From a virus (taxonomy: Duplodnaviria > Caudoviricetes), in IMG/VR virus record IMGVR_UViG_3300029305_005387: 64,000 nt of DNA; one strand, written 5' to 3'. Both the position numbers and the translations under genes were made by a program. The notes below the pieces were generated by a model. That model was not told the DNA's origin, ran no database searches, and saw only the letters and a list, made by a program, of their open reading frames with translations. Below are positions 6,146-39,999 of the stretch, in pieces; position 1 is the first letter of the stretch, and every line of letters starts with the position of its first letter.

Positions 6146-6664
6146 TTATTTATCGCTAAGGATAGCGAGAGAGATGTTTTCAATTGGACTTACGTCATAC
6201 TTAATAGCAGAAGTTGTTCTATCAATAAGCATGTTTATAGGCGAGAAACCTGCAAACATATCCCAAAACTCTTCCATTTCAAGTCCTAATGTATTTAGTA
6301 CATCTCCATCGAAGTCGGCATTGAGACCTGGGAGGATTGCACTAGGTATGGCTAAGGTGTAATCCTCTGCATCCGGTTTAATCCTTCTGACTCTCATTAA
6401 AAGTATACTTCCGAACGTTATTGTTGGATTTCTGTTAAGAATAATCTTAATATTATCATTCTCAACTATTCTGCACATTACACCATATACGTATGGATCA
6501 AAGTTAAATTTACTTTCTAAGAAATTTGTTGCTTTTGTAATAGTCCAACCTTTATCTTTGATGATATAAGCAAGGATATGTCCTTTAAACTGCTCAATAA
6601 AAGCTTTATAACTCATATCAACTTCATCAATCTTGAGGGTGGGATCTAATACTATGACTTGTCG
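6146..6664 (-). CDS. rpoC: RNA polymerase beta' subunit (N-terminal half), exon 2
   Basis: NRNPTI and catalytic NADFDGD motifs; joins exon 1 in frame as ...GGEYNFSG|RQVIVLDP (cf. GKRVDYSGRSVIV); spliced product about 460 aa. Confidence 0.9.
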   Translation of the reverse strand, partial: RQVIVLDPTLKIDEVDMSYKAFIEQFKGHILAYIIKDKGWTITKATNFLESKFNFDPYVYGVMCRIVENDNIKIILNRNPTITFGSILLMRVRRIKPDAEDYTLAIPSAILPGLNADFDGDVLNTLGLEMEEFWDMFAGFSPINMLIDRTTSAIKYDVSPIENISLAILSDK

Positions 6665-8031
6665 CATTATCTTCATACTGTATCGCAACTACAGTACCGA
6701 GCTTTTAACTCTGCTACTGCTTTCGCAGTACGACAGTAGAATTTCACTACTGAAGAACCATTACGGTTGATGAGACTATATCTTCATCATATATTCTGTT
6801 ACCAAATATATGATGTCCCTCCATTTCCCATTACTATATTAATATTACTATTAATAACCTCCATTAGCTTTGAGGGGTAATAACCACTATATTATACAAC
6901 GTATTTCTCGTTATACATAGTTAGGTTAATAGTCGTTGAACGTTGTTCTGCATTAATACAGAACCTTCGCTGCCTATGATTATCCAATCCTAAATGATTT
7001 TACCATCCGATAGTCGTTATACTATCTGCTACACTGTACATCACTGTCAGCTGCGGTTATTTAGGCTCTAAGGAACTTCCGGCAATTAAAAGGAAGCAGG
7101 CCAAACAAGTTTATTCATCTGATTGCTGATTTAATTCATAACCAAAGATAAATTCTTCTTCAATTTCATATTCTTTTTCTTTTTCAGAAGATTTATCTAA
7201 TTTACATCGAAATTTTTTCTTGGAAGGATTTAGATAATTATTATCTCTGATACGCCATTTAATATAATTAATATTAGCTTTTGTATCAGGTAAACCTACT
7301 ATCTGTAAAATTTCTTTTTTACTTCGTAATCCTCTTTTTAGTAATTCATCTATCATATTATTTTGCTCTTTAGAACGATCTCCATATGTATTAAATTTTG
7401 GAATATTATATTCACTTCTAATTTCATTCCAATTTCCGTTATATTTTATTCCACTAACAAATGCAGTCGTAACATTTAATTTCTTAGCTATATGATAGAT
7501 GGATTTACCTTTTTCTAACATTTTACAGACTTTTCTAATAGTCTTTTCGTCATGTGATGGTTTTAAACCAGTTTTCATAGCATGTTCAATATTTTCTTTG
7601 AATGATACCCATTCAAGATTATCTACACAATTGTTAGTTTTCACTCCATCAATATGATTCACTTGAGGTTTATTTTCTGGATCAGGGTTAGGGATAAATG
7701 TTAAGGCTACTAACCTATGAACACTATAATGTTTATCCTTTCCATTAATACTTAATGCTACTCTTGGATATCCACCTCGCGTATAATCAATATGAACTCG
7801 CAATTGTTTCCCAGTAACAATATTTCGAACATTACCATATGAACTGATTTCATAGTTTGATTCAATACCATCAGTTTTAAATCTCTTCCATTCTTCTTTC
7901 TTTGATGTAAACGATTCATAATCTTTATAATCAATCATGTTTAAATTCCTCCTTCATATTTTTTACTATTATGTAAGAAGAAATTTAATTTAAAAATCAG
8001 CAATTTATACAGGGATAACCATGTCGATAAA
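6665..8031 (-). mobile_element. group I intron in beta' gene carrying an HNH endonuclease in the P1 loop
   Basis: R element GTTCAACGACTA (6941-6930) and S element AAGATATAGTC (6784-6774); 5' exon ends CAGGU and pairs with IGS GGCCUG (U.G wobble); terminal G at 6665; removal restores the frame. Confidence 0.9.
7111..7938 (-). CDS. intron-encoded NUMOD4/HNH homing endonuclease
   Basis: [11 protein letters not shown] (NUMOD4), VHRLVA...[18 protein letters not shown] (HNH), C-terminal HTH-like segment. Confidence 0.9.
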
Positions 8032-19851: not shown

Positions 19852-21573
19852 TTAAAATTCATATATTAAAAAATCCATTAGCGGTGCGAAGGCTGCAACT
19901 TCGGGTTTACAAGAGACGGAAGCCCCGGTGTTCCAGTACGAGGACGAAACCAGAAAGTTCAAGAGGCACGCGAACGCACCGCAATTAGAACCAACGTCCG
20001 AACAACCGCCGAACAGGGCAAACCTGATATCGGTGGTTCTGAACCAACCTCCGTCGCAATATTTCGTTGTTGAAGAACCATTGAGCGTGCTCATGAAGAG
20101 ACCGAAATCGTTGACTTTCATATCATTGATATATCCATAATAGTAGTCATTGTTGACTAAGTTAGAACATACAGGACTAAAGCCAAGATTGATATATCCT
20201 TCACCAGTTTCATTGTAGTCTGTAGCTGTAGATCCATCAGCAGTTCCCTTAGTCATCTTACATTTCATTACACCATTATCCAGAATCAAACCAGCAGTTC
20301 TCTTCCAGATATTACCCCAGAAATGTTCAATACCGAATACCTTAACACCGAGATTTCTCTTGGAAGATCCCCAGAATAATCCCTTATCGTTCATAGTACC
20401 AGTAGGAAGAACACCATTGCCGTCAGAACCAGTAGGCTTATCATTGTAACCGTTTTCATTACCAAGACCAAATACAGACTGTGTATCAGTGGATTTACCA
20501 ATCAATACACAAAGTAATGACAGTAACTGACGGTCAGCAAGTACGTCAATATCCCAGATATCAACGCCTTCAGGGTTGTTTGCTCTAGCTTCCTGAATCT
20601 GGACAGTACCAGTCTGAGATCTAGTAGGACTCTTACCAGAAACAGAACGAAGTTTACCGTCAGTGTCTACCCAACCATCATATGCAGCTCTGTAGAAGTA
20701 AGGCATAATATTACCATTTACATCAGTATGAGCATATGCATGATAAGAATCATCTACCTTAGTTGCTGCGAAGTAGAACTTAGGCTTACGAGGAGCAGTT
20801 ACATCTACCTTCATGTATACAGTAGGAATACCTACCATTACGTTACCTGCACAGTTTTCATCGATAGTAGCAGCTGCACCATTAACTGTCTTAGTATAAT
20901 CGAAACGATCAAGTTCAACGTTAACTGTACCATCGAAGTTAAGAATTACAGGCTTGATATTCTTCAAGAACCATACGTTTGCCCAGTCACCGGATTCAAA
21001 CTTATCAGCAGTCATATCCATGTATGCAGGCTGATATGTAGCATTCTCACCAATGTATCGTACACGATCATATGGATCAGCTTCATCAAGATCTAATTCG
21101 AAACCGAATACTGCAGAAGACTTAGCAGTCATATCCTGAGCGATATCACGAGCAACAGGATTACCACTTGCATCGAAACCAAGGAACTGATTTTCAGTAC
21201 CAATGATCTTGTTCACCTTAGCTTTGTCAGCTGCAGGCATAAGACCAGGTGCAGACTCAGTAGCTGCTCCGTATGTAGTATCCTTTGTAGGAGGTGTATA
21301 ACCCAAAGCTTCAGTTACATTTTCTTTAGTCATCTCACCAAGAATTGTTGCAGCAGATTTATTTTCTACTTTATCCAACCCAAGAGTAGATTTTGTGATG
21401 TTATGAGGGTTTGAAGCTCCAGCATGCTCAGCAATACCAGGGGCTTTCAGAGTTACTTTGGAACCATCCTGTGTCAATTCAACACCATTGGATGCTTCCA
21501 GTGTAATAGCATTTTGACCATTGATTTTGGCAGGATCACCAACGACCTTGCCAAGGTTAATCTGTTTTGCCAT
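19852..21573 (-). CDS. tail fibre / receptor-binding protein, DGR target
   Basis: Fibre motifs NPHNITKSTLGLDKVENKS and DTTYGAAT..GLMPAADK; FGIEHFWGNIW-type C-terminal lectin-like domain that contains the VR. Confidence 0.85.
   Translation of the reverse strand: MAKQINLGKVVGDPAKINGQNAITLEASNGVELTQDGSKVTLKAPGIAEHAGASNPHNITKSTLGLDKVENKSAATILGEMTKENVTEALGYTPPTKDTTYGAATESAPGLMPAADKAKVNKIIGTENQFLGFDASGNPVARDIAQDMTAKSSAVFGFELDLDEADPYDRVRYIGENATYQPAYMDMTADKFESGDWANVWFLKNIKPVILNFDGTVNVELDRFDYTKTVNGAAATIDENCAGNVMVGIPTVYMKVDVTAPRKPKFYFAATKVDDSYHAYAHTDVNGNIMPYFYRAAYDGWVDTDGKLRSVSGKSPTRSQTGTVQIQEARANNPEGVDIWDIDVLADRQLLSLLCVLIGKSTDTQSVFGLGNENGYNDKPTGSDGNGVLPTGTMNDKGLFWGSSKRNLGVKVFGIEHFWGNIWKRTAGLILDNGVMKCKMTKGTADGSTATDYNETGEGYINLGFSPVCSNLVNNDYYYGYINDMKVNDFGLFMSTLNGSSTTKYCDGGWFRTTDIRFALFGGCSDVGSNCGAFACLLNFLVSSSYWNTGASVSCKPEVAAFAPLMDFLIYEF
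19912..20025 (-). repeat. DGR variable repeat (VR)
   Basis: 114-nt match to TR 28912-29025 with 13 mismatches, all opposite TR adenines. Confidence 0.97.
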
Positions 21574-21638
21574 TATTGATTATCTCCTTTCAAATTTTAT
21601 TTTGTAATTTTAATTAATCCCAAAATACAGGAATTAAT

Positions 21639-22013
21639 TTACACTGTTGCAATGAGATAGCCATTTTCATCAATATTGAATGAATATCTCGCTACAGCAT
21701 TATCATCTGTAGTTTCATTCGAATTAAGAATTAAATAACCATCCTCATTGATAGATAGATCTACTTCTGCTTCATCAGGAACATTGATAACGAGATATCC
21801 GCTTGAAGTATCAATATCAAACGCATAATTAACCGTTACATCTAATGCATTAATTTTTGCATTTAATGTTCTCATGTCTGATTCATAGGTAGTTCTACGA
21901 ACATAGTTGTCCTCAACTATCTGGAACACTGCTTGTAGGAGCACATCTAGTCCAGCCTCGTCAAGAACATACATTTTTTCAACTCCTGTGCTCATAATTT
22001 GTTTAACCTCCAT
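21639..22013 (-). CDS. hypothetical (tail-associated?) protein
   Basis: 124 aa with repeated FxIDExGYL motif, directly upstream of the fibre gene. Confidence 0.6.
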   Translation of the reverse strand: MEVKQIMSTGVEKMYVLDEAGLDVLLQAVFQIVEDNYVRRTTYESDMRTLNAKINALDVTVNYAFDIDTSSGYLVINVPDEAEVDLSINEDGYLILNSNETTDDNAVARYSFNIDENGYLIATV

Positions 22014-22093
22014 TTCTTCATAAATTTATAAGGTTGTGATCTGAATACAGGTTCTTAAGGTAAACCCAAAACAATGAAAGTAGGTGTAAAGAT

Positions 22094-25000
22094 ATGAATG
22101 AAGTTTTATTCAATAATCTCGATTACGGAGCATATCAACTCGAGTATGATGATAATTATTATCTTAGCGAGAATATTAAATTTAATATTGCTGAATTTAA
22201 TAAACTCTATACTCGAAAGATACGTCTCCCTGAGGGAAATTCAAACATCATCTATCTCTTATCAAATACGTTCAACGGAGCATTGAATATGTTGAACAAC
22301 ATTATTGTTCCTCCATCTTATAGGAAGTTATATTATCCTCAATATTCCGTTGGAACATTCATGAAGAAGAGATATAGATTAAATGTCACTGATAAAAAGA
22401 CTCGTGATGATTTAATTAAACAGAAAACAAAGTTATCACCATATCAAACAAAGGTACTACCAAATACGCAGAATAACGTTATATTTTCCTGCGACCAGTT
22501 ATACGCAGTAATGAAACCAATTGTAGACTCATTAACTATTCAGCGTTGTTATACTGAATTCTTTCCTGAATTTATTTCTATTTTAGACAAATTATCACCT
22601 TCCAAACCTGCTAATACCAAACCTGATAGTGGTAATAGAATTATCATTATCGATGCAGATACATTTGCATTCAAACAAGGTGCTGGTTTAGAAGAGAATA
22701 AAGCCAATCCATTATATCTACTATATTTATCTTTTTTACGAAATAAGAAAGTAAATAAAAGTGCAGTAGATATTGACATGATGATTTGCTCTAAAAATTT
22801 ATTTTTGAAATTTAATCCTTCAAAAATTACTATGGATCAATGGAATCTCTTCAGAAGAGCTTTATTCAGAATCATGAATGCTAATTTGGATGATTACACA
22901 GATAATCTTACTCCAGAAGAAAAGAATGAACTCAATGAAACTGGAAAAGAAAAAGTTTTATCCAATATCGTAAAAGATACTGTGGAACCATATGTACAGA
23001 ATGTTTCAGGTTCAACTAAAGAAGTTCTTCAACATGCAGTTCAAAAGAAAGTGAAAAAAGAAGCAGCTAAGAAAGCTGCAATGGATGCAGAGATTAAAAA
23101 GGCTATCGGAAATACGAACATTGAAAAACCTGACATTTTCCGTCAAACTATTGAAAATCCTAATTCTGTTTTACATTCCAATCCAGTAGTTTCTCCATTA
23201 TCAAATAAACAGAATAATTTATTCCAATCATTGGCAGGTAGTTACCAATCTCTTACTACTGATACAGGTATGGAAGTCGATGATGAAGACAATTACGATT
23301 ATGATCGTCCTGAAGATACAGAAGAGAATTTAGAAGAGTTTGAAGATGATATCACTGCAGATGCTCAAGAAATTCTGGTAGATGATGAAGAAGTTGCACA
23401 AGAAGTTCTAGATGAAATTCAAAATAATGTAGCTCCTCTTGATAATAAACGCACATCTCCAATCAATAGTGCAAGGGATAAAAAATTAAGAGAAGAGCAA
23501 AAGAAAGTAGTTGTTGGTAAAGAAACAATTGAAGAAATTCTATCAAGAGATGCTTCAAATGTTCCGATTCAGGCTACTGATAAATCTAAAGTAATGAAGA
23601 CGTCAAATAAAAATATGACTCAAATCAAATTTACAAATTTTGACAAAACTTACATCGATGAATTATACATGAAGGATATCGTTGCATGTTTCGATATGTT
23701 AAAGGATAAAGAAACTCCTTTCTATGTAACAGGTATAGATATAAAAGACACTTCTACTACTTTAGATTTTAAAGAAACATGGACAGTTCATTTGAAAGAT
23801 GAAACTGGTAAACGTCATACTGTCAAAGTAGATATTCCTAAATTTCAGAATGATCGTTTCATGCTTATCAATGGTACACGTTTCATTATTCTTAAGCAGA
23901 ACTTCTATAATCCTCTAGTTAAGGATACTCCTGATACAGTTATCCTTACTACTAATTTCAACAAGATTACTATTTGTCGTAAGGCAACTAAATCGTTGAA
24001 TTCTGTTGAACGAATTTTCTCTCTTGTAAAGAAAAGTGGAGATAATAAATTATTCATGCCTGGCGATTCCAGTAAACCGAACATGAAGTATTTATCTTCA
24101 TTAGAGTATGATGAGTTATCAAGAAGAATTTTCCGTTTCAAAACAGATACATGTGAAATTTGTTTCTCTAGAGATTATATCAAAGATAATATGAGTGACA
24201 GCATTCCGACAAATATGAAGGGTAACGAATTCTTTATTGGTATTGAAGGAAATGAACCAATTCTTATCAATGAGGATACTGGCTTAGATAGACATAATCG
24301 TACTATTATTGAAATCATCGAGCAGCACCTTCCTCCTTCTTATAAAGAAACCTATCATTCTATTAAAGGACCTACACAATCAATGTATGTTGAAGCAAAA
24401 CTTGCTGGACAGTTTATCCCTATTATTACAACACTGATTGTATGGAATGGATTGCGTAGAACTCTAGACAGAATGAATATCACTTGGAAATTCGATGATA
24501 AAGCAAAACGAGTTCCTCAATCAACAGCGACAACAAAATACATCAGATTCGCTGATGGTGTACTTGAATATGAATCTCAAACATTTGCTCAATTGATTTT
24601 AAATGGTATTTCAAAGATGCATCCAGAACAATATCGTTTTGAAGACTTTGATTCTGAAATTGGATATGATGAATATGTCTACTCACAATGGGGATCATAT
24701 AACGGAATTACTGAAATCAAACGATTCAATGAATTCCTTGTTGATCCAATTACGAAGCAAGTGTGTAAAGATTTAATGTTACCTGACGATCCTTCTGGTT
24801 TAATGATTCATGCAGTAAAATTATTATGCGACAATGCTTTCGTGTCTAAAGCATCTGATAAATCATATCGTGTAAGATCAGTTGAAATGATCCCATCTAT
24901 TTTATATAGCTGCTTAGCAGATCAATATAAAATTCATGTGAAATCAGGTCGACGAATTCCAATGACATTGAATCAACGTTGTGTTATTACTAAACTTATG

Positions 25001-26530
25001 GCTGAAAAGACTGTAGAACCATATTCAGTTTTGAATCCGGTTGTTGAAGTAAGTAAAACACATACTGTTTCTACAAAAGGTTACAAAGGATCGAACTCTG
25101 ATCACTCTTATGATGAAGAGAAACGTTCATATGATCCAAGTGCAGTTGGTAAGCTCGCAATTTCTACGAGCCCCGACGGCAATGTGGGTATAAATAAAGT
25201 ACTTGTTACAGAACCTACAATTGCTAATGCTAGGGGCTACAGAGAACCAGTAGAAGATATTAATGAATTGAAAGATGTAAATATCTTTTCTCCTGTAGAA
25301 TTACTAACTCCAGGTACTGCTAGAAATGACGATCCAATTAGAACTGCAATTGCAGGTAAACAATCAGGTCACATAGTACCAGTAGTTGATGCATCTCCTG
25401 CATTAATCTCAAATGGTTATGATGAGGCTGTTCAATTCCATCTTTCTGATGACTTTGTTATCAATGCTGAAGAAGATGGAGAAGTGATTGAAGTAAATGA
25501 AGAGATTGGATTCATTGTTGTAAAATATAAATCTGGTAAAACTAGAGCAATTAATACTAAACCAGAAGTTGTTAAAAACTCAGGTGCTGGTTTCTTCCTT
25601 TCTAATCAATTGAAACCTACCTATACAAAAGTAGGTGAAAAATTTAAGAAAGATGAACCTCTTGCGTATCATGATAAATATTTCCGTTATTCCAAGATGA
25701 ATGGTTTGCGATTCTCGATTGGACCTCTTGTAAAGATGGGATTCATGTCTTCTTATAACACATATGAAGATGCAGGTATCTGTACAGAATCACTTGCTGA
25801 AAGAATGAAAACTTCCATTGTATATCAAGAAGTCGGTAAGTTCAAAAAGAATAATAATATTTTATCAATGGTAAAAATTGGCGATCATGTAAACATCGGT
25901 GATACATTAATCAAATTTGATGTTTCCGTAGAAGATAATGAATTAGCAAAATATCTTTCTAAATTAAATGAAGAAAATGCTGAATTATTATCTGAAGAAT
26001 CTAAGTCAGAAATTAAGACTATGCATGCTGGTAAAATAATTGATATCAAAGTGTATTCATTATTGGCACCGGAACAGTTATCAGAGTCTTTGGGAGCTGT
26101 TGTTCAGCAATACTTTGACAAAGGTACTTCTAAGAAAGAATTCTTAGAGAAGTTTGATCAGAATGATAGTATAATGAAAGCTGGTTATCTATTAACTGAC
26201 TCTACTGAACCTGTCAAAAGTAGATATAATTCAATTAAGGGTATTAAGGGCATTGACGTGCTAATTGAAATATATATTGAACACGGTGACGTTATGGGTG
26301 TTGGTGATAAGGTTGCATTATACGGACCTAATAAACAGATCATCTCTGAAATTATTCCAAAGGGATGGGAACCTTATTCTGAATCTAGACCTGATGAAGA
26401 AATAAGTGTACTGACATCTCCTGGTACAATTGCAAGAAGAATGACTAGTAGCATTATCCCAATCTCTGCTGCAATGCGTTGCATGGTCGAGCTGAAACGT
26501 AAGATCAAAGAAGAAATCAAATTCAAATAA
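22094..26530 (+). CDS. rpoB: phage RNA polymerase beta subunit (large, probably virion-type)
   Basis: FMLING, STSPDGNVG, RTAIAGKQ, YNTYEDA, VGDKV..GPNKQII, SPGTIARRM beta-family motifs; long N-terminal extension. Confidence 0.88.
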   Translation: MNEVLFNNLDYGAYQLEYDDNYYLSENIKFNIAEFNKLYTRKIRLPEGNSNIIYLLSNTFNGALNMLNNIIVPPSYRKLYYPQYSVGTFMKKRYRLNVTDKKTRDDLIKQKTKLSPYQTKVLPNTQNNVIFSCDQLYAVMKPIVDSLTIQRCYTEFFPEFISILDKLSPSKPANTKPDSGNRIIIIDADTFAFKQGAGLEENKANPLYLLYLSFLRNKKVNKSAVDIDMMICSKNLFLKFNPSKITMDQWNLFRRALFRIMNANLDDYTDNLTPEEKNELNETGKEKVLSNIVKDTVEPYVQNVSGSTKEVLQHAVQKKVKKEAAKKAAMDAEIKKAIGNTNIEKPDIFRQTIENPNSVLHSNPVVSPLSNKQNNLFQSLAGSYQSLTTDTGMEVDDEDNYDYDRPEDTEENLEEFEDDITADAQEILVDDEEVAQEVLDEIQNNVAPLDNKRTSPINSARDKKLREEQKKVVVGKETIEEILSRDASNVPIQATDKSKVMKTSNKNMTQIKFTNFDKTYIDELYMKDIVACFDMLKDKETPFYVTGIDIKDTSTTLDFKETWTVHLKDETGKRHTVKVDIPKFQNDRFMLINGTRFIILKQNFYNPLVKDTPDTVILTTNFNKITICRKATKSLNSVERIFSLVKKSGDNKLFMPGDSSKPNMKYLSSLEYDELSRRIFRFKTDTCEICFSRDYIKDNMSDSIPTNMKGNEFFIGIEGNEPILINEDTGLDRHNRTIIEIIEQHLPPSYKETYHSIKGPTQSMYVEAKLAGQFIPIITTLIVWNGLRRTLDRMNITWKFDDKAKRVPQSTATTKYIRFADGVLEYESQTFAQLILNGISKMHPEQYRFEDFDSEIGYDEYVYSQWGSYNGITEIKRFNEFLVDPITKQVCKDLMLPDDPSGLMIHAVKLLCDNAFVSKASDKSYRVRSVEMIPSILYSCLADQYKIHVKSGRRIPMTLNQRCVITKLMAEKTVEPYSVLNPVVEVSKTHTVSTKGYKGSNSDHSYDEEKRSYDPSAVGKLAISTSPDGNVGINKVLVTEPTIANARGYREPVEDINELKDVNIFSPVELLTPGTARNDDPIRTAIAGKQSGHIVPVVDASPALISNGYDEAVQFHLSDDFVINAEEDGEVIEVNEEIGFIVVKYKSGKTRAINTKPEVVKNSGAGFFLSNQLKPTYTKVGEKFKKDEPLAYHDKYFRYSKMNGLRFSIGPLVKMGFMSSYNTYEDAGICTESLAERMKTSIVYQEVGKFKKNNNILSMVKIGDHVNIGDTLIKFDVSVEDNELAKYLSKLNEENAELLSEESKSEIKTMHAGKIIDIKVYSLLAPEQLSESLGAVVQQYFDKGTSKKEFLEKFDQNDSIMKAGYLLTDSTEPVKSRYNSIKGIKGIDVLIEIYIEHGDVMGVGDKVALYGPNKQIISEIIPKGWEPYSESRPDEEISVLTSPGTIARRMTSSIIPISAAMRCMVELKRKIKEEIKFK

Positions 26531-26562
26531 AAAATAAATAGAGAGGACCAAAACGGTCCTCT

Positions 26563-28521
26563 CTATTTGTTAATCATAATTACATACTCTTTGTTACCAC
26601 TGAAATGTGATTTGTTTACAATTTCATCTACTATATACTCCTTATACTTTACAGTATTATCTACTATAAATACATATCGTTCACATTTAAATCTAGATAG
26701 ACATTCGTCTATCCAATCATCACATGATAGGTCTTTTAGTTCAACATCATCCCAATTCTCTTTCATGTTATACGGAGAGCAGGTAAATAAACATTCATAT
26801 TCTCCAGTGGATTCAAATATATCTTGTTGTATTATAGATGCTTCAAATTGAATATCATATTTCTTTAAGAATTCAATCATTAAGTTCGACTCATTAACAT
26901 GAATCTGACTAATGTCTTGTCCTATATATCTTTTACCTAATGATATTGCTCCTAACATACGTCCTGAGAATCCACTGAATGGATCGAATATTTCATTATA
27001 TTGTGATAAATATTTATAAATAATCATCTTTGCTCTACCTGCACTGAATACGGATACTTTCGGTGCTATTTTGGATACATTAAATCCTTGGAGTATTTTA
27101 TTTGGATTTAAATGAGATTGATAAATGATTCTGTTCTTGATACATTCTTTCAACAGCTCGTCATCCATCCATGCATCATACGGTGAAAGTTCTCCATCTC
27201 TGTGAGCTCTGTAAATAGATGGATGAAAATGTTGTATAAGTCTATCTCCAATACGTGTATTCAATGATAATGAATTATGATATTTATCATTACAATCCAT
27301 TCTATATAATTTATCATATGAACGTAATAATTCTTTATCACTAAATCTCAACTCAGGAAATGGGATAGATCTAAAATGTTTGAATAAATATTCTACGTAT
27401 TCGTCGTAATTAATCATTAATAATTCTATAAGTTCTTTAAAGCATCTACCGATGTTCCCTTCCTGAATTATAAAATGAATTATGTCAGAATCCTCTGGTA
27501 TTGACTGACTTCTCTTTTCATCATATTCTTCTTTACTATGAATTCCATCATAATCACATGAGTCTGCGTGGAAGTAAGATCCATCTAAATCAACTACAGC
27601 TACTAATTCATGACTGAGATTATATATTCCGTAATCCCATGAATGTGCAGATTTATTTGTAAATAATACAATTTCAGGTTTCAAATAAAATTCATTAATC
27701 AAATGAGAATTACTAAACATTTCTTCAAATTTTTGGTGTAATAAATTATTTTTACCTGAAGATGATAAACGTTTTTTAATTAATGTAGCCTTTTGTTCAT
27801 TTGTGAGATTATCGTATAATACTTGTTTCTCCATCGCATATAATATTTTTTGATCGTGAGTTAAATCATGATACCATTTATGAGTTCTTTTATATAATTC
27901 TTTTTTCTCTTCTTCACTCAAGTTTTGATGCCACTGAGACATGGCTTTGGATCGTTCAAGTTTCTCTTCCATAGAAAGAGTTGCATTATATTCTTTCATT
28001 CGTTGAGATAATTCTTGTCTTTTAATAGCTTTTTCTTCTTCAGATAAATTAATCCACCATTTTCTTCCAATGACAGATTTCTCCTCATCTGTTAGTGAAT
28101 CACGTTTATCTTTCAAAGCTTTAATCATTGGAGTAACTCGTTTCATTTTATCTTTATCAGAAACTTTTCTCCAATGACGTTTTAATCCTTTAGAATTCTT
28201 TTTATTAATATTATTCCATTCTTCTTTAGATCTTTTGGATAGTTGATCTTTAGTTCTTTGAGCATATTTCTCTTTATCTTGATCCGATAGATTCTGATAA
28301 TGATCTATATGCTTCTGTCTAAACTTTTCCTGATCTTCTTTAGATAAATTAGAAAACCAATTTTTCTTTGCTAATTTTGTATGTTCTTTCATACATGATT
28401 GACATAAATTAGGAATATTACGTTTAGTACGTATTCTTTGATTGTCTTTAGAAATTTGATACTGGCCTTTACATCTGTCACATATTAAATCTATCATAAC
28501 TTTTTCTACCATATTATTCAC
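26563..28521 (-). CDS. Zn-finger/helical-repeat + Vsr/DUF559-like nuclease + DNA methyltransferase-like fusion protein
   Basis: CDRC..CQSC, LSEEEK-type repeats, SWDYGI..VDLDGSYFH, then FDPFSGFSGR (motif I) and FTCSPY (degenerate motif IV). Confidence 0.7.
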   Translation of the reverse strand: MNNMVEKVMIDLICDRCKGQYQISKDNQRIRTKRNIPNLCQSCMKEHTKLAKKNWFSNLSKEDQEKFRQKHIDHYQNLSDQDKEKYAQRTKDQLSKRSKEEWNNINKKNSKGLKRHWRKVSDKDKMKRVTPMIKALKDKRDSLTDEEKSVIGRKWWINLSEEEKAIKRQELSQRMKEYNATLSMEEKLERSKAMSQWHQNLSEEEKKELYKRTHKWYHDLTHDQKILYAMEKQVLYDNLTNEQKATLIKKRLSSSGKNNLLHQKFEEMFSNSHLINEFYLKPEIVLFTNKSAHSWDYGIYNLSHELVAVVDLDGSYFHADSCDYDGIHSKEEYDEKRSQSIPEDSDIIHFIIQEGNIGRCFKELIELLMINYDEYVEYLFKHFRSIPFPELRFSDKELLRSYDKLYRMDCNDKYHNSLSLNTRIGDRLIQHFHPSIYRAHRDGELSPYDAWMDDELLKECIKNRIIYQSHLNPNKILQGFNVSKIAPKVSVFSAGRAKMIIYKYLSQYNEIFDPFSGFSGRMLGAISLGKRYIGQDISQIHVNESNLMIEFLKKYDIQFEASIIQQDIFESTGEYECLFTCSPYNMKENWDDVELKDLSCDDWIDECLSRFKCERYVFIVDNTVKYKEYIVDEIVNKSHFSGNKEYVIMINK

Positions 28522-28780
28522 CTAATGCTTTCTTGAGTGCTTCCGTAGTATCTTTAATCTTATCTGCATTCATTAACATGTGAACTATATTCGCTACTTC
28601 AGCATCAATTTTCTTTTTACATTCTTCTGAATCACAAGCGTTTGTATAATTCTTTCCTGTCATTATATCATTTGGAATTGCAAATTTATTATTACAAAAT
28701 CTACATGATTTAATAGTAACATTCTCCGGAATTTCTTTTCCTTCTTCTAATATGTACATATGTGGAATTAACATATTCAA
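28514..28780 (-). CDS. small Zn-ribbon protein (paralog of 31767..31985)
   Basis: CxxC...CxxxxC, C-terminus LKKALGE. Confidence 0.65.
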   Translation of the reverse strand: MNMLIPHMYILEEGKEIPENVTIKSCRFCNNKFAIPNDIMTGKNYTNACDSEECKKKIDAEVANIVHMLMNADKIKDTTEALKKALGE

Positions 28781-28911
28781 TCACCTCTTTCTTCTATAGA
28801 ATATATCATAATTATTTATTTAAAAGAGAGACGGAAAATATTAAATAATTTTAATCGAACGCACCAACTCAATATTTATTGGGGTTTCCCAATAGGGATT
28901 TGTGGTACGAG

Positions 28912-29025
28912 AGGTTTGCCCTGTTCGGCGGTAATTCGAACAATGGTTCTAATTGCGGTGCGTTCGCGTGCAACTTGAACAATCTGGTTTCGAACTCGAA
29001 CTGGAACAACGGGGCTTCCGTCTCT
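28912..29025 (+). repeat. DGR template repeat (TR)
   Basis: Non-coding, 11 AAY triplets in the VR frame, 185 nt upstream of the RT. Confidence 0.97.
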
Positions 29026-29210
29026 CTTTTATCCGTAAAATCGGGGATTTAAAATTTTTAATGTATCGCCTATTCCTGACCTCATGGTCGAAATTTGCCC
29101 CAGCTTCGTCAATTCGTTAGTAGCCCGTCGAAAGCGAATGAAGGGGATAAAAGAAGGGTTAAAAATAACGGGCTATATTTGTATTTAAGGAATCGAGGTT
29201 ACTTTGTAAC

Positions 29211-30311
29211 ATGAAATCATATGGTTATCTCTGGGAGAAATTCATTTCTAAAGACAATATAAGATTATGTATAAAGCGTGCTGCCATTGGTAAAAAGAAA
29301 CGAAAATCAGTTAAACGTGTCATGGAGAATATCGACAAGTTCGTCGATATAATCCATGATTACGCACTGAATTTCAAAAATTGTTCACATGAAGAAATTA
29401 AAATATTAGATGGTAATTCTGGTAAAGAAAGGCTTATAATAGTTCCTAGATTTAAGGAACACGTAATACATCATATGGTCGTTGAAGTAATGACCGAAAT
29501 ATTCACGAAGGGTATGTATAAGCACACATACTCTTCGATTCCTGGACGAGGCTTACATAAAGCCATGAAAAAGATGAAAGCATGGATCAAGAAAGATCCA
29601 AAGAATGTGAAATACTGTTTAAAATTAGACATCAAAAAATTCTTTAATTCAATTAATCATGATATACTCAAAGAAAAACTTCATAAAACTATACGAGATA
29701 AACGATTTTTAAAAGTTGTAGATGAAATTATAGATGCTTCCGATAATGGAATACCTTTAGGATTTTATACGTCACATTGGTTTGCAAATTGGTTATTACA
29801 ACCATTAGATCACTTCATTAAAGAAGTTTTAAAAGTAAAATATTATGTAAGATACATGGATGATATGGTCTTGTTTGGATCCAATAAGAAGAAACTTCAT
29901 AAAGCTAAAGAAGCAATTGAAAACTTTTTACGAGATAAACTCAAACTTAAATTGAAAGAAAATTGGCAATTATTTAGATTTGATTATATTAAGAATGGTA
30001 AACATAAGGGTAGAGCCCTTGATTTCGTTGGATTTAAATTCTATAGAGATAAAATCACTTTACGTAAAAATATAATGTTAAGATTAACACGAAAAGCTAA
30101 GAAGATAGAAAAGAAAGGTAAGTTCACAATTCATGATGCAAGACAACTAATGGCTTGGTTAGGATGGATAGATTGGACTGACACTTACAACGTATATAAG
30201 AAATACATAGCTCCTTATATAAACTTCAAGAAATGTAGGAAGCGTATTTCACAATATGATAAGAAGCACTCAGAAATGCTCAAAATTCTAGAATTAAAGG
30301 AGGCAGCATAA
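29211..30311 (+). CDS. DGR reverse transcriptase
   Basis: KERLI, PGRG, LKLDIKKFF, GIPLGFYTSHWFAN, YVRYMDD, DFVGF; adjacent TR. Confidence 0.95.
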   Translation: MKSYGYLWEKFISKDNIRLCIKRAAIGKKKRKSVKRVMENIDKFVDIIHDYALNFKNCSHEEIKILDGNSGKERLIIVPRFKEHVIHHMVVEVMTEIFTKGMYKHTYSSIPGRGLHKAMKKMKAWIKKDPKNVKYCLKLDIKKFFNSINHDILKEKLHKTIRDKRFLKVVDEIIDASDNGIPLGFYTSHWFANWLLQPLDHFIKEVLKVKYYVRYMDDMVLFGSNKKKLHKAKEAIENFLRDKLKLKLKENWQLFRFDYIKNGKHKGRALDFVGFKFYRDKITLRKNIMLRLTRKAKKIEKKGKFTIHDARQLMAWLGWIDWTDTYNVYKKYIAPYINFKKCRKRISQYDKKHSEMLKILELKEAA

Positions 30312-30313
30312 CT

Positions 30314-30637
30314 ATGGAAGTAAAATTCAAAACAAGTCGTTCTAGCATTCGACCTGAATTGCTAGACAAAACTAGTTCCAAAACTCAGGTATTCGTTCGT
30401 CAGAACATCAAAGAAGTTATGGAAAAAGATCAGGAAGGTAATGACGTTACTACATTCGAGTTTGAGGAAGCTAGACTTTCTAAACAGGAATATGCTCTTT
30501 ATGTAGTAGCTAATGCCCTTCAGGATGCCGACGTTGAAGTTCAGTTGGCATTAGCAGAACTTGCTGAGATGGTTGACGCAAGCAATACTAATATGGAACT
30601 TGCTCTTGCAGAACTTGCTGAAGCAATGATGGCTTAA
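30314..30637 (+). CDS. hypothetical protein (tail-fibre-module type), coupled to the RT
   Basis: Starts 2 nt after the RT stop; duplicated LALAELAE motif. Confidence 0.7.
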   Translation: MEVKFKTSRSSIRPELLDKTSSKTQVFVRQNIKEVMEKDQEGNDVTTFEFEEARLSKQEYALYVVANALQDADVEVQLALAELAEMVDASNTNMELALAELAEAMMA

Positions 30638-30680
30638 TCCATGTAAAATGAAAATTATTTTTTGAAAGGAGATCAATGTT

Positions 30681-30791
30681 ATGGCTAAAGTATATTACAA
30701 TCTTATCAAGAAGGGTCTTAGAACTATTGATGAAGTACCTGCAGCTTGGCGTGCAGCTGTAGAAGAGATGCTTGCTGCTGATGCAGAATAA
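30681..30791 (+). CDS. CD1375-like small protein (36 aa, not in ORF track)
   Basis: MAKVYYNLIKKGLRTIDEVPAAWRAAVEEMLAADAE with AAAGGAG RBS; pattern typical of small genes after Firmicutes phage fibre genes. Confidence 0.75.
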   Translation: MAKVYYNLIKKGLRTIDEVPAAWRAAVEEMLAADAE

Positions 30792-31985: not shown

Positions 31986-32067
31986 GTTAATTTTCCTCCT
32001 TATAGAAAATAAAATTGTTATATAGAACCCAAGGGTGCATCATGCACCCTTGGGTTGTAAACAGGTA

Positions 32068-33696
32068 TTACATACCATGAATCAGCCTAAGCTGGTACAA
32101 GGCGTTATTGTGGTCAAGAGCGTCAGAAACATGGTTGTATCGAGGATTCAACAGCTGTTCCACTAGGCAATCCCAAGGATCCATCTTGTTACTCATCACC
32201 ATCTTTACAAGGTTCAGAGAGAAGCCAGATACTAAGGTAACTCCGAGTTCATTTTCAGTCATCGGAATTGCTCCGCTCCTAGAATTTACATTCCAGAAGA
32301 TTACCTTAGGAAGCTTGTATCCGAGATTTGAGTAATGCTGCTTGATATTATCAAACAACGTTGTAGAATCACTACGATGACTGAGTCTCCATCCTTCATC
32401 GTCACAAACACATCCATCAAATTCCATATCAGAAATAATGAGGATATTCGCAGGAAGAGATTCTTGCTTCATATGAAATCTTACAGCTGTATCCAAAACC
32501 ATATTGAACACTGCTTCAATATTTGTGTTTGCAACTTCATGGAATCTACTCATGTAGTTCATTCTGTCAGCAACTGACTGACTACGAGCATTGTCAAGAT
32601 CAATGAATACAGGATGTTCACTAAAGCTTACTAACTTATTATGGAATTCACCACTCAGTTTTTCAGCAAAGTAAAGAGACAGTGCATCTGCTACATCTGC
32701 AGCGGACACTTTACTATCCTTTCCAACACCTGTTTCCATAGATCCAGAACCATCTCTAACTACAAGGGTACCACCGGTTCCTGCTGGAATAAGATTAGGT
32801 AAACACTTCCACATTGCTTCAAGTGTACTGACGTCCTCTCGGTTATATCCAACTCTTCGGATTTTGGAAACGATCTCATGAGGAAACAGTGTGGCAGCAT
32901 TCATCTTCTCTTTTCCAGAGTTGACATCCTCGATGAACTGTGTGTAGCGTTCCTCGTCATGCTTCATGAAAGCATTTCGATAGATCATACCAGCACGTCC
33001 AGGTACGTTAGGATATTTGATTTCACCCCATTGTCCATTAGACATCTTCACCTCTGTGACATCGATGTATCTGCGAAGCTGTGCAACTAGCTTGCGGTAT
33101 GGAGTCTCCAGTAAACCAAGTTTCTTCGCCATCTTACGAGCAGCTGCCTTCTGGTTTTTGTTGCTAAGAGAAGGTAACCACTTAGCCAGAAGAGAAACAC
33201 GATAACCTTTGTGCATATTTGCGAGGTCATCTTTAAACTGATCATTGATGGCTTTGTAAACCTTGTAGCTGAATTCAACTGAAGAATCTGTCAATTTCAT
33301 CAGATCATCCCACCGACCATAGAAAGGAATGAGTTCTTCAATAGTTTCTGTCTCGTTGTTTCTGATTCTAACTCTAACCAGTTTCGAAATCAGCTCAGGG
33401 TAGTACATAGCCATCCATTTAAGAATGACTCTAAACGCACGACGTTCTCCCATTCCTCCGCGGGGATCACGGAGGAAGAAAAGCCATCTCATGGCTAATT
33501 CCGGAGTCTCATCATAAGCAATGGACCACTTCTTGATGATCTCATCATCAGTCATTTTTCTCATCGCAGGAATAGAAAAATTGAGGTCCAGTAAGGACCT
33601 CCCAGTGGTCTTGTAAGCTGCTGCTCCGTTTTCAGTGAAAGCTCTGTTGTTAATGGAATCACTAACGGCTTTCAGGTTGTTTGCAAAGTTTGTCAT
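32068..33696 (-). CDS. DUF2828-like TROVE/Ro60-related protein with C-terminal vWA domain
   Basis: TENGA, LFFLRDPRGGMGERR, YGRWDDL, LAKWLPS, MIDAS DGSGSM, TNIEAVF, ISDMEFD, IFWNV; start reassigned to ATG 33696 (GGAGG RBS), 542 aa. Confidence 0.85.
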   Translation of the reverse strand: MTNFANNLKAVSDSINNRAFTENGAAAYKTTGRSLLDLNFSIPAMRKMTDDEIIKKWSIAYDETPELAMRWLFFLRDPRGGMGERRAFRVILKWMAMYYPELISKLVRVRIRNNETETIEELIPFYGRWDDLMKLTDSSVEFSYKVYKAINDQFKDDLANMHKGYRVSLLAKWLPSLSNKNQKAAARKMAKKLGLLETPYRKLVAQLRRYIDVTEVKMSNGQWGEIKYPNVPGRAGMIYRNAFMKHDEERYTQFIEDVNSGKEKMNAATLFPHEIVSKIRRVGYNREDVSTLEAMWKCLPNLIPAGTGGTLVVRDGSGSMETGVGKDSKVSAADVADALSLYFAEKLSGEFHNKLVSFSEHPVFIDLDNARSQSVADRMNYMSRFHEVANTNIEAVFNMVLDTAVRFHMKQESLPANILIISDMEFDGCVCDDEGWRLSHRSDSTTLFDNIKQHYSNLGYKLPKVIFWNVNSRSGAIPMTENELGVTLVSGFSLNLVKMVMSNKMDPWDCLVEQLLNPRYNHVSDALDHNNALYQLRLIHGM

Positions 33697-33730
33697 TTGA
33701 CGTACCTCCTTATTGTGTTGAATGTAGTTG

Positions 33731-34294
33731 ATTATTGACCATAAGTCACAATTTTCTTTTTCATATAATTCAAGAATAATGTTTGCTGTACATGACTTGT
33801 TGTCAATAATTGGAGTCATAGGACGCATTTTTTTGTATTCATATAATTTATACATAATGATTTGCTGTACGCGTCCAAAATATGATGATTATGAGGAAGA
33901 ATCATTTTTGTAAAGAAAGTAAACATAGGACTCTTTTAATTTTTGAAATTAATGTAAATTATAATTCTGAGAAGGAATTACATTTTACTCATCTCCCAAA
34001 CTCATATTCGCGGGGTGTCGAATTATGAATCATTATCTCACACACTTTTTATTTTTATATCTTTTACTGTTTTTATTTAGTAATTGATTGCTGTGTGAGT
34101 CCATTATTACTTTCTTTGAATAATTACCATAAATCACATTTTTGGATCTGGCAGATCCTTAATGTTGCCTTTTATGTAATAATTGCTGTGAGTGATTTCT
34201 GTAATTATTTTCATAAGACCCATATTCTTTTTCATATAATATAAGAATTTTAATTGCTGTAAGGGTCTTTAAAAATGATTCTTTGTTTCCTCAT
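33731..34294 (-). ncRNA. large structured leader/ncRNA with five ACAGCAA hairpin modules
   Basis: Five stems of different sequence, each followed by ACAGCAA and closed by AUG; long-range stem 33890-33908/34271-34294. Confidence 0.8.
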
Positions 34295-38606: not shown

Positions 38607-39999
38607 CATTTATCTTCATACTGTATCGCAACTACAGTACCGAGCTTTTAACTCTGCTACTACTCTCGTAGTACGACATCTGTATCTCAACAGATGAAGT
38701 GACATAAATGTCAGATGAGACTATATCTTTTATACTAACCACTTCGCGTTACCTCAGTCCCTTGCAGGATTTAAACTGACCTCCATTAGCTTGAGGGCTA
38801 CTCTACTCACTTCTTCATATTAATATTTCTATTAATACTATGCTTTCGATAGTCGTTGAACTTTATTCATATCATATCACTTTTGTACATTTTCTACCTT
38901 TTAATATTGAAACAAGATAAGATCTAGATGTCTTATTATAAATTGAGAATATCTCATCAATACTTTTTCCTGATTTATACATTTCCCTCATTGTATTGAT
39001 ATCACTTACTCTATATTTTGAATCAGGTCGTATATTACCCGTATAATCATTAAAATTATATTGTGAAGTGATATCAATCCATGATCGTTGATGTGTTCTA
39101 AAATTATAAAGTTGATTTCTGAAATTTTTGTATACTCTTTTATCTTCAGGAAATATATTATAGTATGCAGCAATATCTTTAACACATATATCTTCTTCCA
39201 TCATTCTACATACATGATGAACAATTTCACTTGTCCATTCAAATGTTCTCTGATATAATCCTTCCTCAGCTGCATATCTACTATTGAGAAATGGTGTTGT
39301 TAATTGAAGATTATTTATATTATTATTCCATTTAACATTATCTTCATGATGAATTACATAACCTTTTGGAATTTTACCTTTCCAAGCTTTATATGTCAAT
39401 CTATGAATTGCCATATGCGTTAAATGTGAATATGGAAATGATATTCTATGATATCCATCATCATCTATTTCTTGTTTCAAAATTTTATTAGTAAATGTTG
39501 AAAATACTATTCCATTTTCTGAAATAAAATATCCATCCACTACTCCAGGAATCGATCTGAATTTTACATTATTACTTTCAATTTCATTTTCAGATATTTT
39601 TATATAAGACATAAATTCAAATCTATTTTCTGTTCCGTAAAATGTAATATTAACTAAATTAATTATATAAAATATTTTATCTTTATAAATAAATTTAGCA
39701 TTAATATATGGAATAATATCTTTGATTTCATCGTTTTCTATAATATAAATATTATACATTTTATCAATTCGAAAATTTGTATAATGTGGGATTTCTATCA
39801 AACTTTTGATATCCATAATTTATCACCACCTTTTTCAAATTGATATGATATGAATTTTAGCTGCGGATTTTCTCTACCTAACACCTTTTTACTATACCTT
39901 TGGAATTACCCATTGCCCCATAGTATATCACTATCTATGGTTAGTAGTGTTAGTCTAACAAGATGTTCCCGACAGTTCAATTAGTTACGAGACCACTCG
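38607..39999 (-). mobile_element. group I intron in gyrB with HNH ORF looped out in the P6 region
   Basis: P1 GAGAU/GUCUC with U.G at the 5' splice site; R and S elements; terminal G at 38607; excision restores IIEGD|SAKG. Confidence 0.92.
38872..39816 (-). CDS. intron-encoded HNH homing endonuclease
   Basis: YFISENG, AIHRL..IHHEDNVKWNNNINNL. Confidence 0.88.
   Translation of the reverse strand: MDIKSLIEIPHYTNFRIDKMYNIYIIENDEIKDIIPYINAKFIYKDKIFYIINLVNITFYGTENRFEFMSYIKISENEIESNNVKFRSIPGVVDGYFISENGIVFSTFTNKILKQEIDDDGYHRISFPYSHLTHMAIHRLTYKAWKGKIPKGYVIHHEDNVKWNNNINNLQLTTPFLNSRYAAEEGLYQRTFEWTSEIVHHVCRMMEEDICVKDIAAYYNIFPEDKRVYKNFRNQLYNFRTHQRSWIDITSQYNFNDYTGNIRPDSKYRVSDINTMREMYKSGKSIDEIFSIYNKTSRSYLVSILKGRKCTKVI

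Follow-up and report, generated by a model that had tools for sequence, protein, structure and literature searches.

A diversity-generating retroelement (DGR) was identified at positions 19,852 to 30,311 of a 64,000-nt stretch, hereafter the window, of the virus record IMGVR_UViG_3300029305_005387 (Caudoviricetes). We are highly confident that it is a functional, Avd-less DGR of a 259-kb jumbo phage encoding RNA polymerase (RNAP), of gut or rumen type, and that it homes in trans to a target gene which is both remote and inverted. The evidence comprises the anatomy of the element, the fold of its target protein, the kinship of its reverse transcriptase (RT), a derived layout, a flow of information from the template repeat (TR) to the variable repeat (VR) after the divergence of phage lineages, and an allelic diversity confined to AAY codons. 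Among natural systems that hypermutate proteins in a targeted way, DGRs are the best known, with phage tail fibres as the classic target, hence the element in itself is ordinary.

The TR (28912..29025, + strand) is non-coding and contains 23 adenines, 22 of them within 11 AAY codons of the VR reading frame. It aligns without gaps over 114 nt to the reverse complement of 19912..20025, the VR (- strand), with 13 mismatches, all 13 at TR adenines (P about 2.6e-11 by chance, given 23 A in the 114-nt TR); at the 91 non-A positions there is no mismatch, and the longest identical run measures 28 nt. The VR lies in frame 0 of the open reading frame (ORF) 19852-21573(-), where it forms codons 517-554 of 573 and thus the C-terminal end of the product, and 8 of the 11 AAY codons are altered in it, yielding C, D, V, L, F, S, Y and T. 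Between the arms, which lie on opposite strands, there are 8886 nt, and the RNAP beta gene, 22094-26530(+), falls within this interval. Re-alignment therefore returned exactly what the initial annotation had claimed, namely a 114-nt match with 13 mismatches at adenines only, eight of 11 AAY codons changed from N to the residues just listed, and an inverted target about 8.9 kb away with the RNAP beta gene in between; its figure of 15^11 (about 9e12) possible protein variants is arithmetically right, at 8.6e12. The 3' end of the VR (19912..19927, - strand) consists of 16 nt that are identical to the TR, lie past the last variable adenine and begin G+C-rich (CGGGGC...). Directly beyond this segment the flanks of VR and TR diverge, and by analogy with the BPP-1 model it may serve as an initiation of mutagenic homing (IMH)-like element (PMC5758913).

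The RT (29211..30311, + strand; 366 aa) is separated from the TR by a spacer of 185 nt. It matches RVT_1 (3.5e-21) and phrog_1423 (1e-108), and among solved structures it comes closest to the Bordetella phage bRT (8ub7, E 1e-28). The enzyme had been described as intact on account of its YMDD motif, which we confirmed and which is carried by 95 of 95 RT clade members among the matches listed. An RT phylogeny, proposed together with that description, nests the window RT among RTs flanked by TR/VR pairs and allows a single origin within the phage clade.

The target gene (19852..21573, - strand) encodes a 573-aa protein of the tail-fibre or receptor-binding type (phrog_5302 tail protein, 3e-82). 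Its residues 1-150 form a lineage-specific and poorly modelled N-terminus, followed by a body of the C-type lectin (FGE-type) kind, for which an AlphaFold2 (AF2) model built from a 38-sequence alignment reached pLDDT values above 90 over residues 150-560. The best PDB matches of the model were TaqVP (5vf4, E 2.5e-12), Mtd (1yu0), FGE and TvpA, and in BFVD it matched entries named 'tail collar fiber protein'. The protein is thus predicted to adopt the C-type lectin fold of DGR variable proteins, in keeping with the earlier claim that the DGR acts on a tail fibre, and it may bind receptors. The G+C content reaches 39% at window positions 20001-22000, where the target gene lies, and at 32001-34000 (TROVE region), against about 31% elsewhere.

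At least 160 loci of RT relatives (L numbers below) were collected from IMG/VR and metagenomes, and each was searched for A-biased repeats. The metagenome RT scan yielded, among the matches listed, nothing above 52% identity; a megablast of 19852-30700 against INPHARED gave no match, and neither did the exact TR/VR patterns with A replaced by N in IMG/VR or the metagenome collection, neither of which includes the window's own phage. We found 94 TR/VR pairs among the matches listed, 92 of them canonical, with VR and TR on one strand and the VR less than 1.5 kb upstream. An inverted layout occurs, among the matches listed, only in L002/L003, a sister phage which is also the closest relative among them (RT 72%, RNAP beta 69%, target 54% identity). 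Its gene order is target(-), 124-aa gene(-), RNAP beta(+), TR, RT(+), and both contigs stop inside the VR. L004/L009 and L015/L016, more distant members of this phage clade, share RNAP beta, the 124-aa gene, a DNA polymerase and a 418-aa gene with the window, and their order is canonical: RNAP beta(-), 124-aa gene(+), target(+), VR, TR, RT(+). In the RT tree the window and L003 are sisters, L005 joins them at 99% support and the position of L016 is compatible with one origin; moreover, the DGR adjoins RNAP beta in 4 of 4 sampled lineages of the phage clade. Because clade relatives keep the canonical order and the RT tree agrees, we regard the DGR as an old resident of this clade and the split as derived. 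The initial annotation had proposed a captured temperate-phage module that was split by rearrangement. The rearrangement of an adjacent cassette is borne out by the canonical L004/L009 and L016, while a recent capture is contradicted by the presence of the DGR in four lineages and by an RT tree that allows a single origin.

The path between the layouts can be followed with four blocks, A (RNAP beta, 124-aa gene, target), B (TR, RT, and the genes of 107, 78 and 143 aa), C (the DNA polymerase side) and D (the side of the TROVE gene), with inv(X) denoting an inverted block. The order is inv(C) inv(B) inv(A) D in G001, the record of L009; inv(C) E inv(B) A, followed by the contig end, in L002, where block E spans about 7 kb and has no counterpart in the window; and inv(C) inv(A) B D in the window. 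Two nested inversions would be the shortest path between these layouts. The first, of block A, would have taken place in the common ancestor of the window phage and L002/L003 and created the split, and the second, of [inv(B) A], probably in the lineage of the window. The split would accordingly be older than the divergence of the window phage and L002, as gauged by the RT and target identities given above. Independent inversions in the two lineages are a conceivable alternative. Relative to blocks C and D, the window target keeps its ancestral orientation and the TR-RT cassette is flipped; in L002 it is the reverse. No inverted repeats other than the TR and VR themselves were found around the inverted block, and GC skew follows the coding strand and gives no replication direction. 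As a separate observation, L015 and L016 are contigs of one phage, yet L015 lacks the target gene present in L016 and keeps the TR and RT; the deletion falls between two direct repeats of 141 nt (93% identity), located on either side of the target in L016 (6490-6630 and 8735-8875). L015 represents a naturally occurring variant without the target or else a collapse in assembly.

Comparison of these genomes indicated that the element worked after its rearrangement. Between the TRs of the window and L002, 12 of 80 shared non-A columns differ, and 12 of 12 are matched in the VR of the respective genome; so are all TR changes that separate the window from L004 (20/20) and from L016 (24/24). Since non-A changes of the TR reappear in the VR, information passed from one repeat to the other within each lineage after their separation, and since the A positions remain different, this transfer was of the RT type and not plain gene conversion. 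Three VR alleles of this phage species are available, that of the window and those of P0005 and P0006 (ENA; protein collection, independent assemblies). P0005 (571 aa) shows 14 differences in 533 residues outside the VR, i.e. less than 3%, and P0006, a 95-aa fragment, is identical upstream of the VR. In pairwise comparison 10 codons differ among the three alleles, all of them within the 11 AAY codons and none in the other 27 (Fisher P = 2e-8). In counts of exact sequences, the RT was found on 8 contigs, the 124-aa protein on 16 and the target on 1. Furthermore, the canonical relatives L012, L013 and L014, whose RT is 52% identical, share one TR while their VRs show 18-22 differences, each at a TR adenine, with flanks differing by at most 1%; they are visibly active. 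The initial annotation had stated that a VR invariant across strains would point to an inactive relic. The VR varies, and only at AAY codons, so that a relic is not indicated; the comparisons instead argue that homing continued after the rearrangement.

Two further observations concern VRs of relatives. L009 differs from L004 by an in-frame 33-nt deletion exactly at the 5' edge of the VR (L004:9174-9206), the DNA being otherwise 100% identical; the deletion takes out the conserved FALFGG strand and may be an aberrant homing product. The ends of the L002 and L003 contigs in the VR were considered as proof of heterogeneity and set aside as suggestive only, as both lie past the variable part and the two contigs have the same VR.

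A search for further VRs, also proposed by the initial annotation, covered the 64-kb window of the 259-kb genome on both strands with A positions ignored and found no TR-like copy besides the known VR. The TR-RT cassette could nevertheless mainly serve another VR in the 259-kb genome, beyond the window, with the inverted fibre gene as a secondary target. Multi-target DGRs are known (PMC5758913), and G001 has, besides its TR, four VR-like copies that lie up to 61 kb away and on both strands. We consider this rather unlikely, as the window contains no second copy, the extra copies examined in G001 are orphan fragments and not full genes, and the fibre VR is demonstrably diversified. The G001 copies other than the adjacent VR (loci L162, L163 and L164) are found at 23220-23291(+), 71627-71698(-) and 118642-118713(+). 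Two of them are orphan fragments comprising about 45 codons of the lectin C-terminus, situated outside ORFs of at least 100 aa, 13 and 61 kb from the TR and on either strand; they show 0 and 2 mismatches to the TR pattern, and at the A positions of the TR they deviate from it. The third copy occupies the extreme end of the contig and repeats the adjacent VR exactly, in inverted orientation.

A relic DGR, in which the inversion parted the VR from the TR and stopped homing, so that similarity and A bias would both predate the split, is very improbable. What speaks for it, besides the remote and inverted target itself, is that L002 and L003 derive from two samples and have the same VR, together with the missing Avd, the SH motif of the RT and the weak hairpin described below. 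Such a relic is difficult to reconcile with the absence of any mismatch at the 91 non-A positions of the window pair, with the 12 of 12 TR differences from the sister lineage that are mirrored in the VRs, and with three alleles of one species whose VR differences are limited to AAY codons, against less than 3% in the remainder of the protein.

Several points weigh against a functional element and deserve to be considered together. Motif 4 of the RT reads LGFYTSHWFAN, with SH for SQ, and thus lacks the (I/L/V)GxxxSQ signature; in 95 relatives among the matches listed, the position is Q in 84 and H in 7. The SH variant also occurs in L003, L004 and L005, whose TR/VR differences are A-specific, so it is compatible with function, which again disfavours a relic. 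No PF05635 (avd) or other match was found among the small ORFs of the window. The avd gene occurs in 74% of DGRs and PF05635 is likewise absent from five related records, including the complete Arawn genome; since the element fits the accessory-less 'Architecture A' (TR-RT), which accounts for 29% of DGRs according to Wu et al. 2018 (PMC5758913), membership does not depend on avd. The hairpin past the VR (19887..19903, - strand; 5-bp stem, 7-nt loop, 9 nt beyond the VR) is weak, with z = 0.79 no better than shuffles. A G+C-rich inverted repeat downstream of the IMH is present in about 34% of DGRs, and the relatives L012, L006 and Arawn have clear G+C-rich hairpins at the corresponding place. 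In addition, activity is deduced from comparison of genomes and alleles and not from reads of the source sample, P0005 and P0006, on contigs of 3.3 kb and 0.5 kb, may come from strains of either layout, and the tail-fibre role is drawn from family names and fold only. Finally, if the splits in the window and L002 were independent and recent, the TR/VR co-variation could predate them. The element has the defining features of a DGR, the exceptions being the SQ signature, Avd and a convincing hairpin.

The least probable explanation is an assembly artefact, by which misassembly at the TR/VR repeat produced the 8.9-kb inversion from a true canonical order of target, VR, TR and RT: the contig is metagenomic, TR and VR form a 114-nt inverted repeat, and VRs evidently disturb assembly, given that L002/L003 end inside the VR and G001 in a VR copy, but both repeats are complete with unique flanks and no junction falls inside them, their longest identical run is 28 nt, the junction of the RNAP beta 3' end with the TR recurs in L002 and L003, a phage only about 70% identical, and the blocks on the DNA polymerase and TROVE sides are oriented as in G001.

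For the functional DGR that we favour, the following course may be envisaged, in which we infer the priming and integration steps and the transcription unit. A transcript containing the leader, the TR and the RT-18-like spacer, probably joined to the RT message, would be produced first. The RT would copy the TR into cDNA, misincorporating opposite template adenines, and the cDNA would then take the place of the VR at the tail-fibre gene's 3' end, guided by the common 16-nt G+C-rich 3' segment (IMH-like) and by upstream homology. As a result, the 11 AAY codons would be recoded on the ligand-binding face of the C-type lectin domain. Homing would work in spite of 8.9 kb and an inversion because the cDNA acts in trans, a mode of action demonstrated by experiment in BPP-1 and deduced for many non-adjacent targets (PMC5758913). 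In agreement with this, the G001 copy that lies 13 kb from the TR on the opposite strand matches it at all non-A positions of the 72-nt pattern.

The leader (28821..28911, + strand) is complementary to segments of the TR: 28821-28835 is the exact reverse complement of 29016-29030 (15 nt, TR 3' end), and 28857-28866 is complementary to 28957-28966 (10 nt, the central A-free segment of the TR). It also contains a local hairpin at 28875-28896. Folding of 28800-29060, with the leader included, gave z = -4.86; TR plus spacer without the leader (28890-29215) folded no better than shuffles. The homologous leader of L003 has a similar closing stem (z = -2.2). In its 10-nt pairing with the TR, an exchange of A to G is compensated by one of T to C, and the hairpin inside the leader co-varies between the window and L003 (GGG/CCC against TTC/GAA). 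In the spacer, a structured RNA (29078..29155, + strand) matches the RT-18 motif over its full length (Rfam RF03021, 33.1 bits, E 3e-4). The score falls under the gathering threshold of 41.3 bits; RT-18 was found at the same position in L006, L007, L011, L012 and L017 with 49-58 bits, which makes the window spacer a divergent RT-18 member at best. RNA motifs of the RT type were proposed to serve DGRs by Weinberg et al. (PMC5737381).

A 2026 study of the BPP-1 DGR in E. coli found that homing gains 7- to 44-fold in efficiency if target and replication run in the same direction (PMC12875486), hence flipping a target is not neutral in principle. We tentatively suggest, while considering it more doubtful than probable, that the DGR of this jumbo-phage clade acts genome-wide in trans on sites in either orientation. 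The sole known target of the window is inverted and 8.9 kb away, the inversions flipped either the target (L002) or the TR-RT cassette (window) against the backbone and homing was kept, and G001 has orphan VR fragments 13 and 61 kb from its TR, on both strands. If this were true, homing would here be far less orientation-dependent than that of the BPP-1 DGR in E. coli (PMC12875486). Alternatively, rearrangements might tune the diversification rate.

The genomic context agrees with the earlier assignment to an RNAP-encoding jumbo phage. The exact target sequence sits on a 259,424-bp contig, targets related to it were found on contigs of 218 and 283 kb, and for contigs of relatives CheckV points to genome sizes near 270 kb. 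The RNAP beta subunit (22094..26530, + strand; phrog_14872/3148, 1e-129 to 1e-132) shares 32-35% identity with its counterparts in Staphylococcus jumbo phages and PBS1; an Rpb1 domain lies in ORF 6146-6688, RNAP beta phrogs are also present, and the window encodes additional RNAP fragments, DNA polymerases, topoisomerase II and HNH endonucleases. With a length above 200 kb and split RNAP beta/beta' genes, the phage conforms to the jumbo phages that have their own multisubunit RNAP (PBS1/AR9 and Staphylococcus type). The RNAP beta gene is a component of the inverted block, though not of the DGR. The 652-aa and 88-aa genes (26563..28780, - strand) between RNAP beta and the TR are likewise no part of the DGR; the former belongs to a multi-copy, variably placed family and is missing at this site in L002. 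Upstream of the target and inverted with it, the gene of a 124-aa acidic protein (21639..22013, - strand) is kept in L002 and in L004/L009 and has no family match.

Downstream of the RT, a 107-aa acidic protein (30314..30637, + strand; pI 4.4) starts 3 nt past the RT stop and contains LALAELAE twice. At 15 of 129 related loci among the matches listed, including non-jumbo contexts, a homologue begins close to where the RT match ends, between 16 nt ahead of that point and 100 nt past it. Atlas comparisons with XkdW/YomQ_N gave weak leads, and the protein is a candidate accessory factor or XkdW/YomQ-like tail-module protein. The CH1 accessory protein of Wu et al., likewise acidic, was considered as its identity and differs in size (160-169 aa). 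As to the labels given previously to the genes after the RT, 'CD1375-like' could not be upheld, since the 78-aa gene found no CD1375 support in Pfam, NCBIfam or PHROGs; those weak leads are what stands for the 107-aa protein, and holin corresponds to one PHROG match (1e-4).

Elsewhere in these genomes, HNH endonuclease genes at window positions 7111-7938 and 38872-39816 and at L004:3398-3790 interrupt or adjoin RNAP, topoisomerase and polymerase genes, and the RNAP beta gene, unbroken in the window, is split by an HNH endonuclease in L004/L009 and L015/L016. A 3221-aa ORF at window positions 47282-56947(-) matches PHROGs for endolysin, metallopeptidase and tail protein within its 800 C-terminal residues and probably encodes a giant virion-associated lytic or tail protein. 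The TROVE/Ro60-like gene of G001 (C1:20261-21877, -) contains one in-frame TAG, which may reflect TAG recoding or a broken gene.

The less expected feature is the host, since four lineages of an RNAP-encoding jumbo-phage clade carry the DGR beside RNAP beta, and a 2021 survey of 224 jumbo phages reported no DGR-type (FGS, C-type lectin) target domain (PMC7824862). A clade with both adjacent and inverted-remote layouts provides evidence from nature that homing is not abolished by distance or inversion, and its sister phages are a possible test case for the effect of target orientation on DGR efficiency (PMC12875486). Surveys demanding a VR beside the RT overlook such elements, as is stated in PMC8144416 itself.

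Compared with the prototype, the BPP-1 DGR (mtd-avd-TR-brt), the window element has an RT homologous to bRT, in which R74 and the C-terminal W..W.DT..N align. The two also share A-specific TR/VR differences in AAY codons, a VR at the C-terminus of a C-type lectin fibre protein, a G+C-rich IMH-like end and a structured RNA between TR and RT (RT-10 in BPP-1, RT-18-like here; PMC5737381). In contrast to BPP-1, the window lacks Avd, has SH for SQ in RT motif 4 and a weak hairpin after the VR, its target lies 8.9 kb off on the opposite strand instead of next to the cassette, and the host is a 259-kb RNAP-encoding phage instead of a 42-kb temperate one. The Architecture A phages (PMC5758913) Butyrivibrio Arawn/Idris, Lactobacillus LBR48 and Faecalibacterium FP_Epona are nearer, with the closest RTs among isolates (43%, 39% and 37% identity) and the closest isolate target (33% over residues 146-561); there too the TR lies directly 5' of the RT, RT-18 spacers occur in relatives, and PF05635 is absent from Arawn and four related records. 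Their VR, however, precedes the TR by 130-250 nt, on the same strand and in the tail module, whereas the window target has a clade-specific N-terminus of 145 aa and lies among replication and transcription genes. In its remote target the element resembles the non-adjacent or opposite-strand DGRs of Treponema, of the Legionella type and of prophages (Wu et al. 2018; MyDGR, PMC6602519), whose targets are likewise remote with unrelated genes in between. Such targets were described as real but rare (PMC6602519, PMC5758913), and two phage-associated DGRs have their sole target non-adjacent, 20 kb away (PMC5758913). Unlike in these known remote-target DGRs, the co-variation of TR and VR here shows homing after the rearrangement, and the rearrangement itself can be reconstructed because sister lineages within this clade of phages still have the adjacent, ancestral arrangement.

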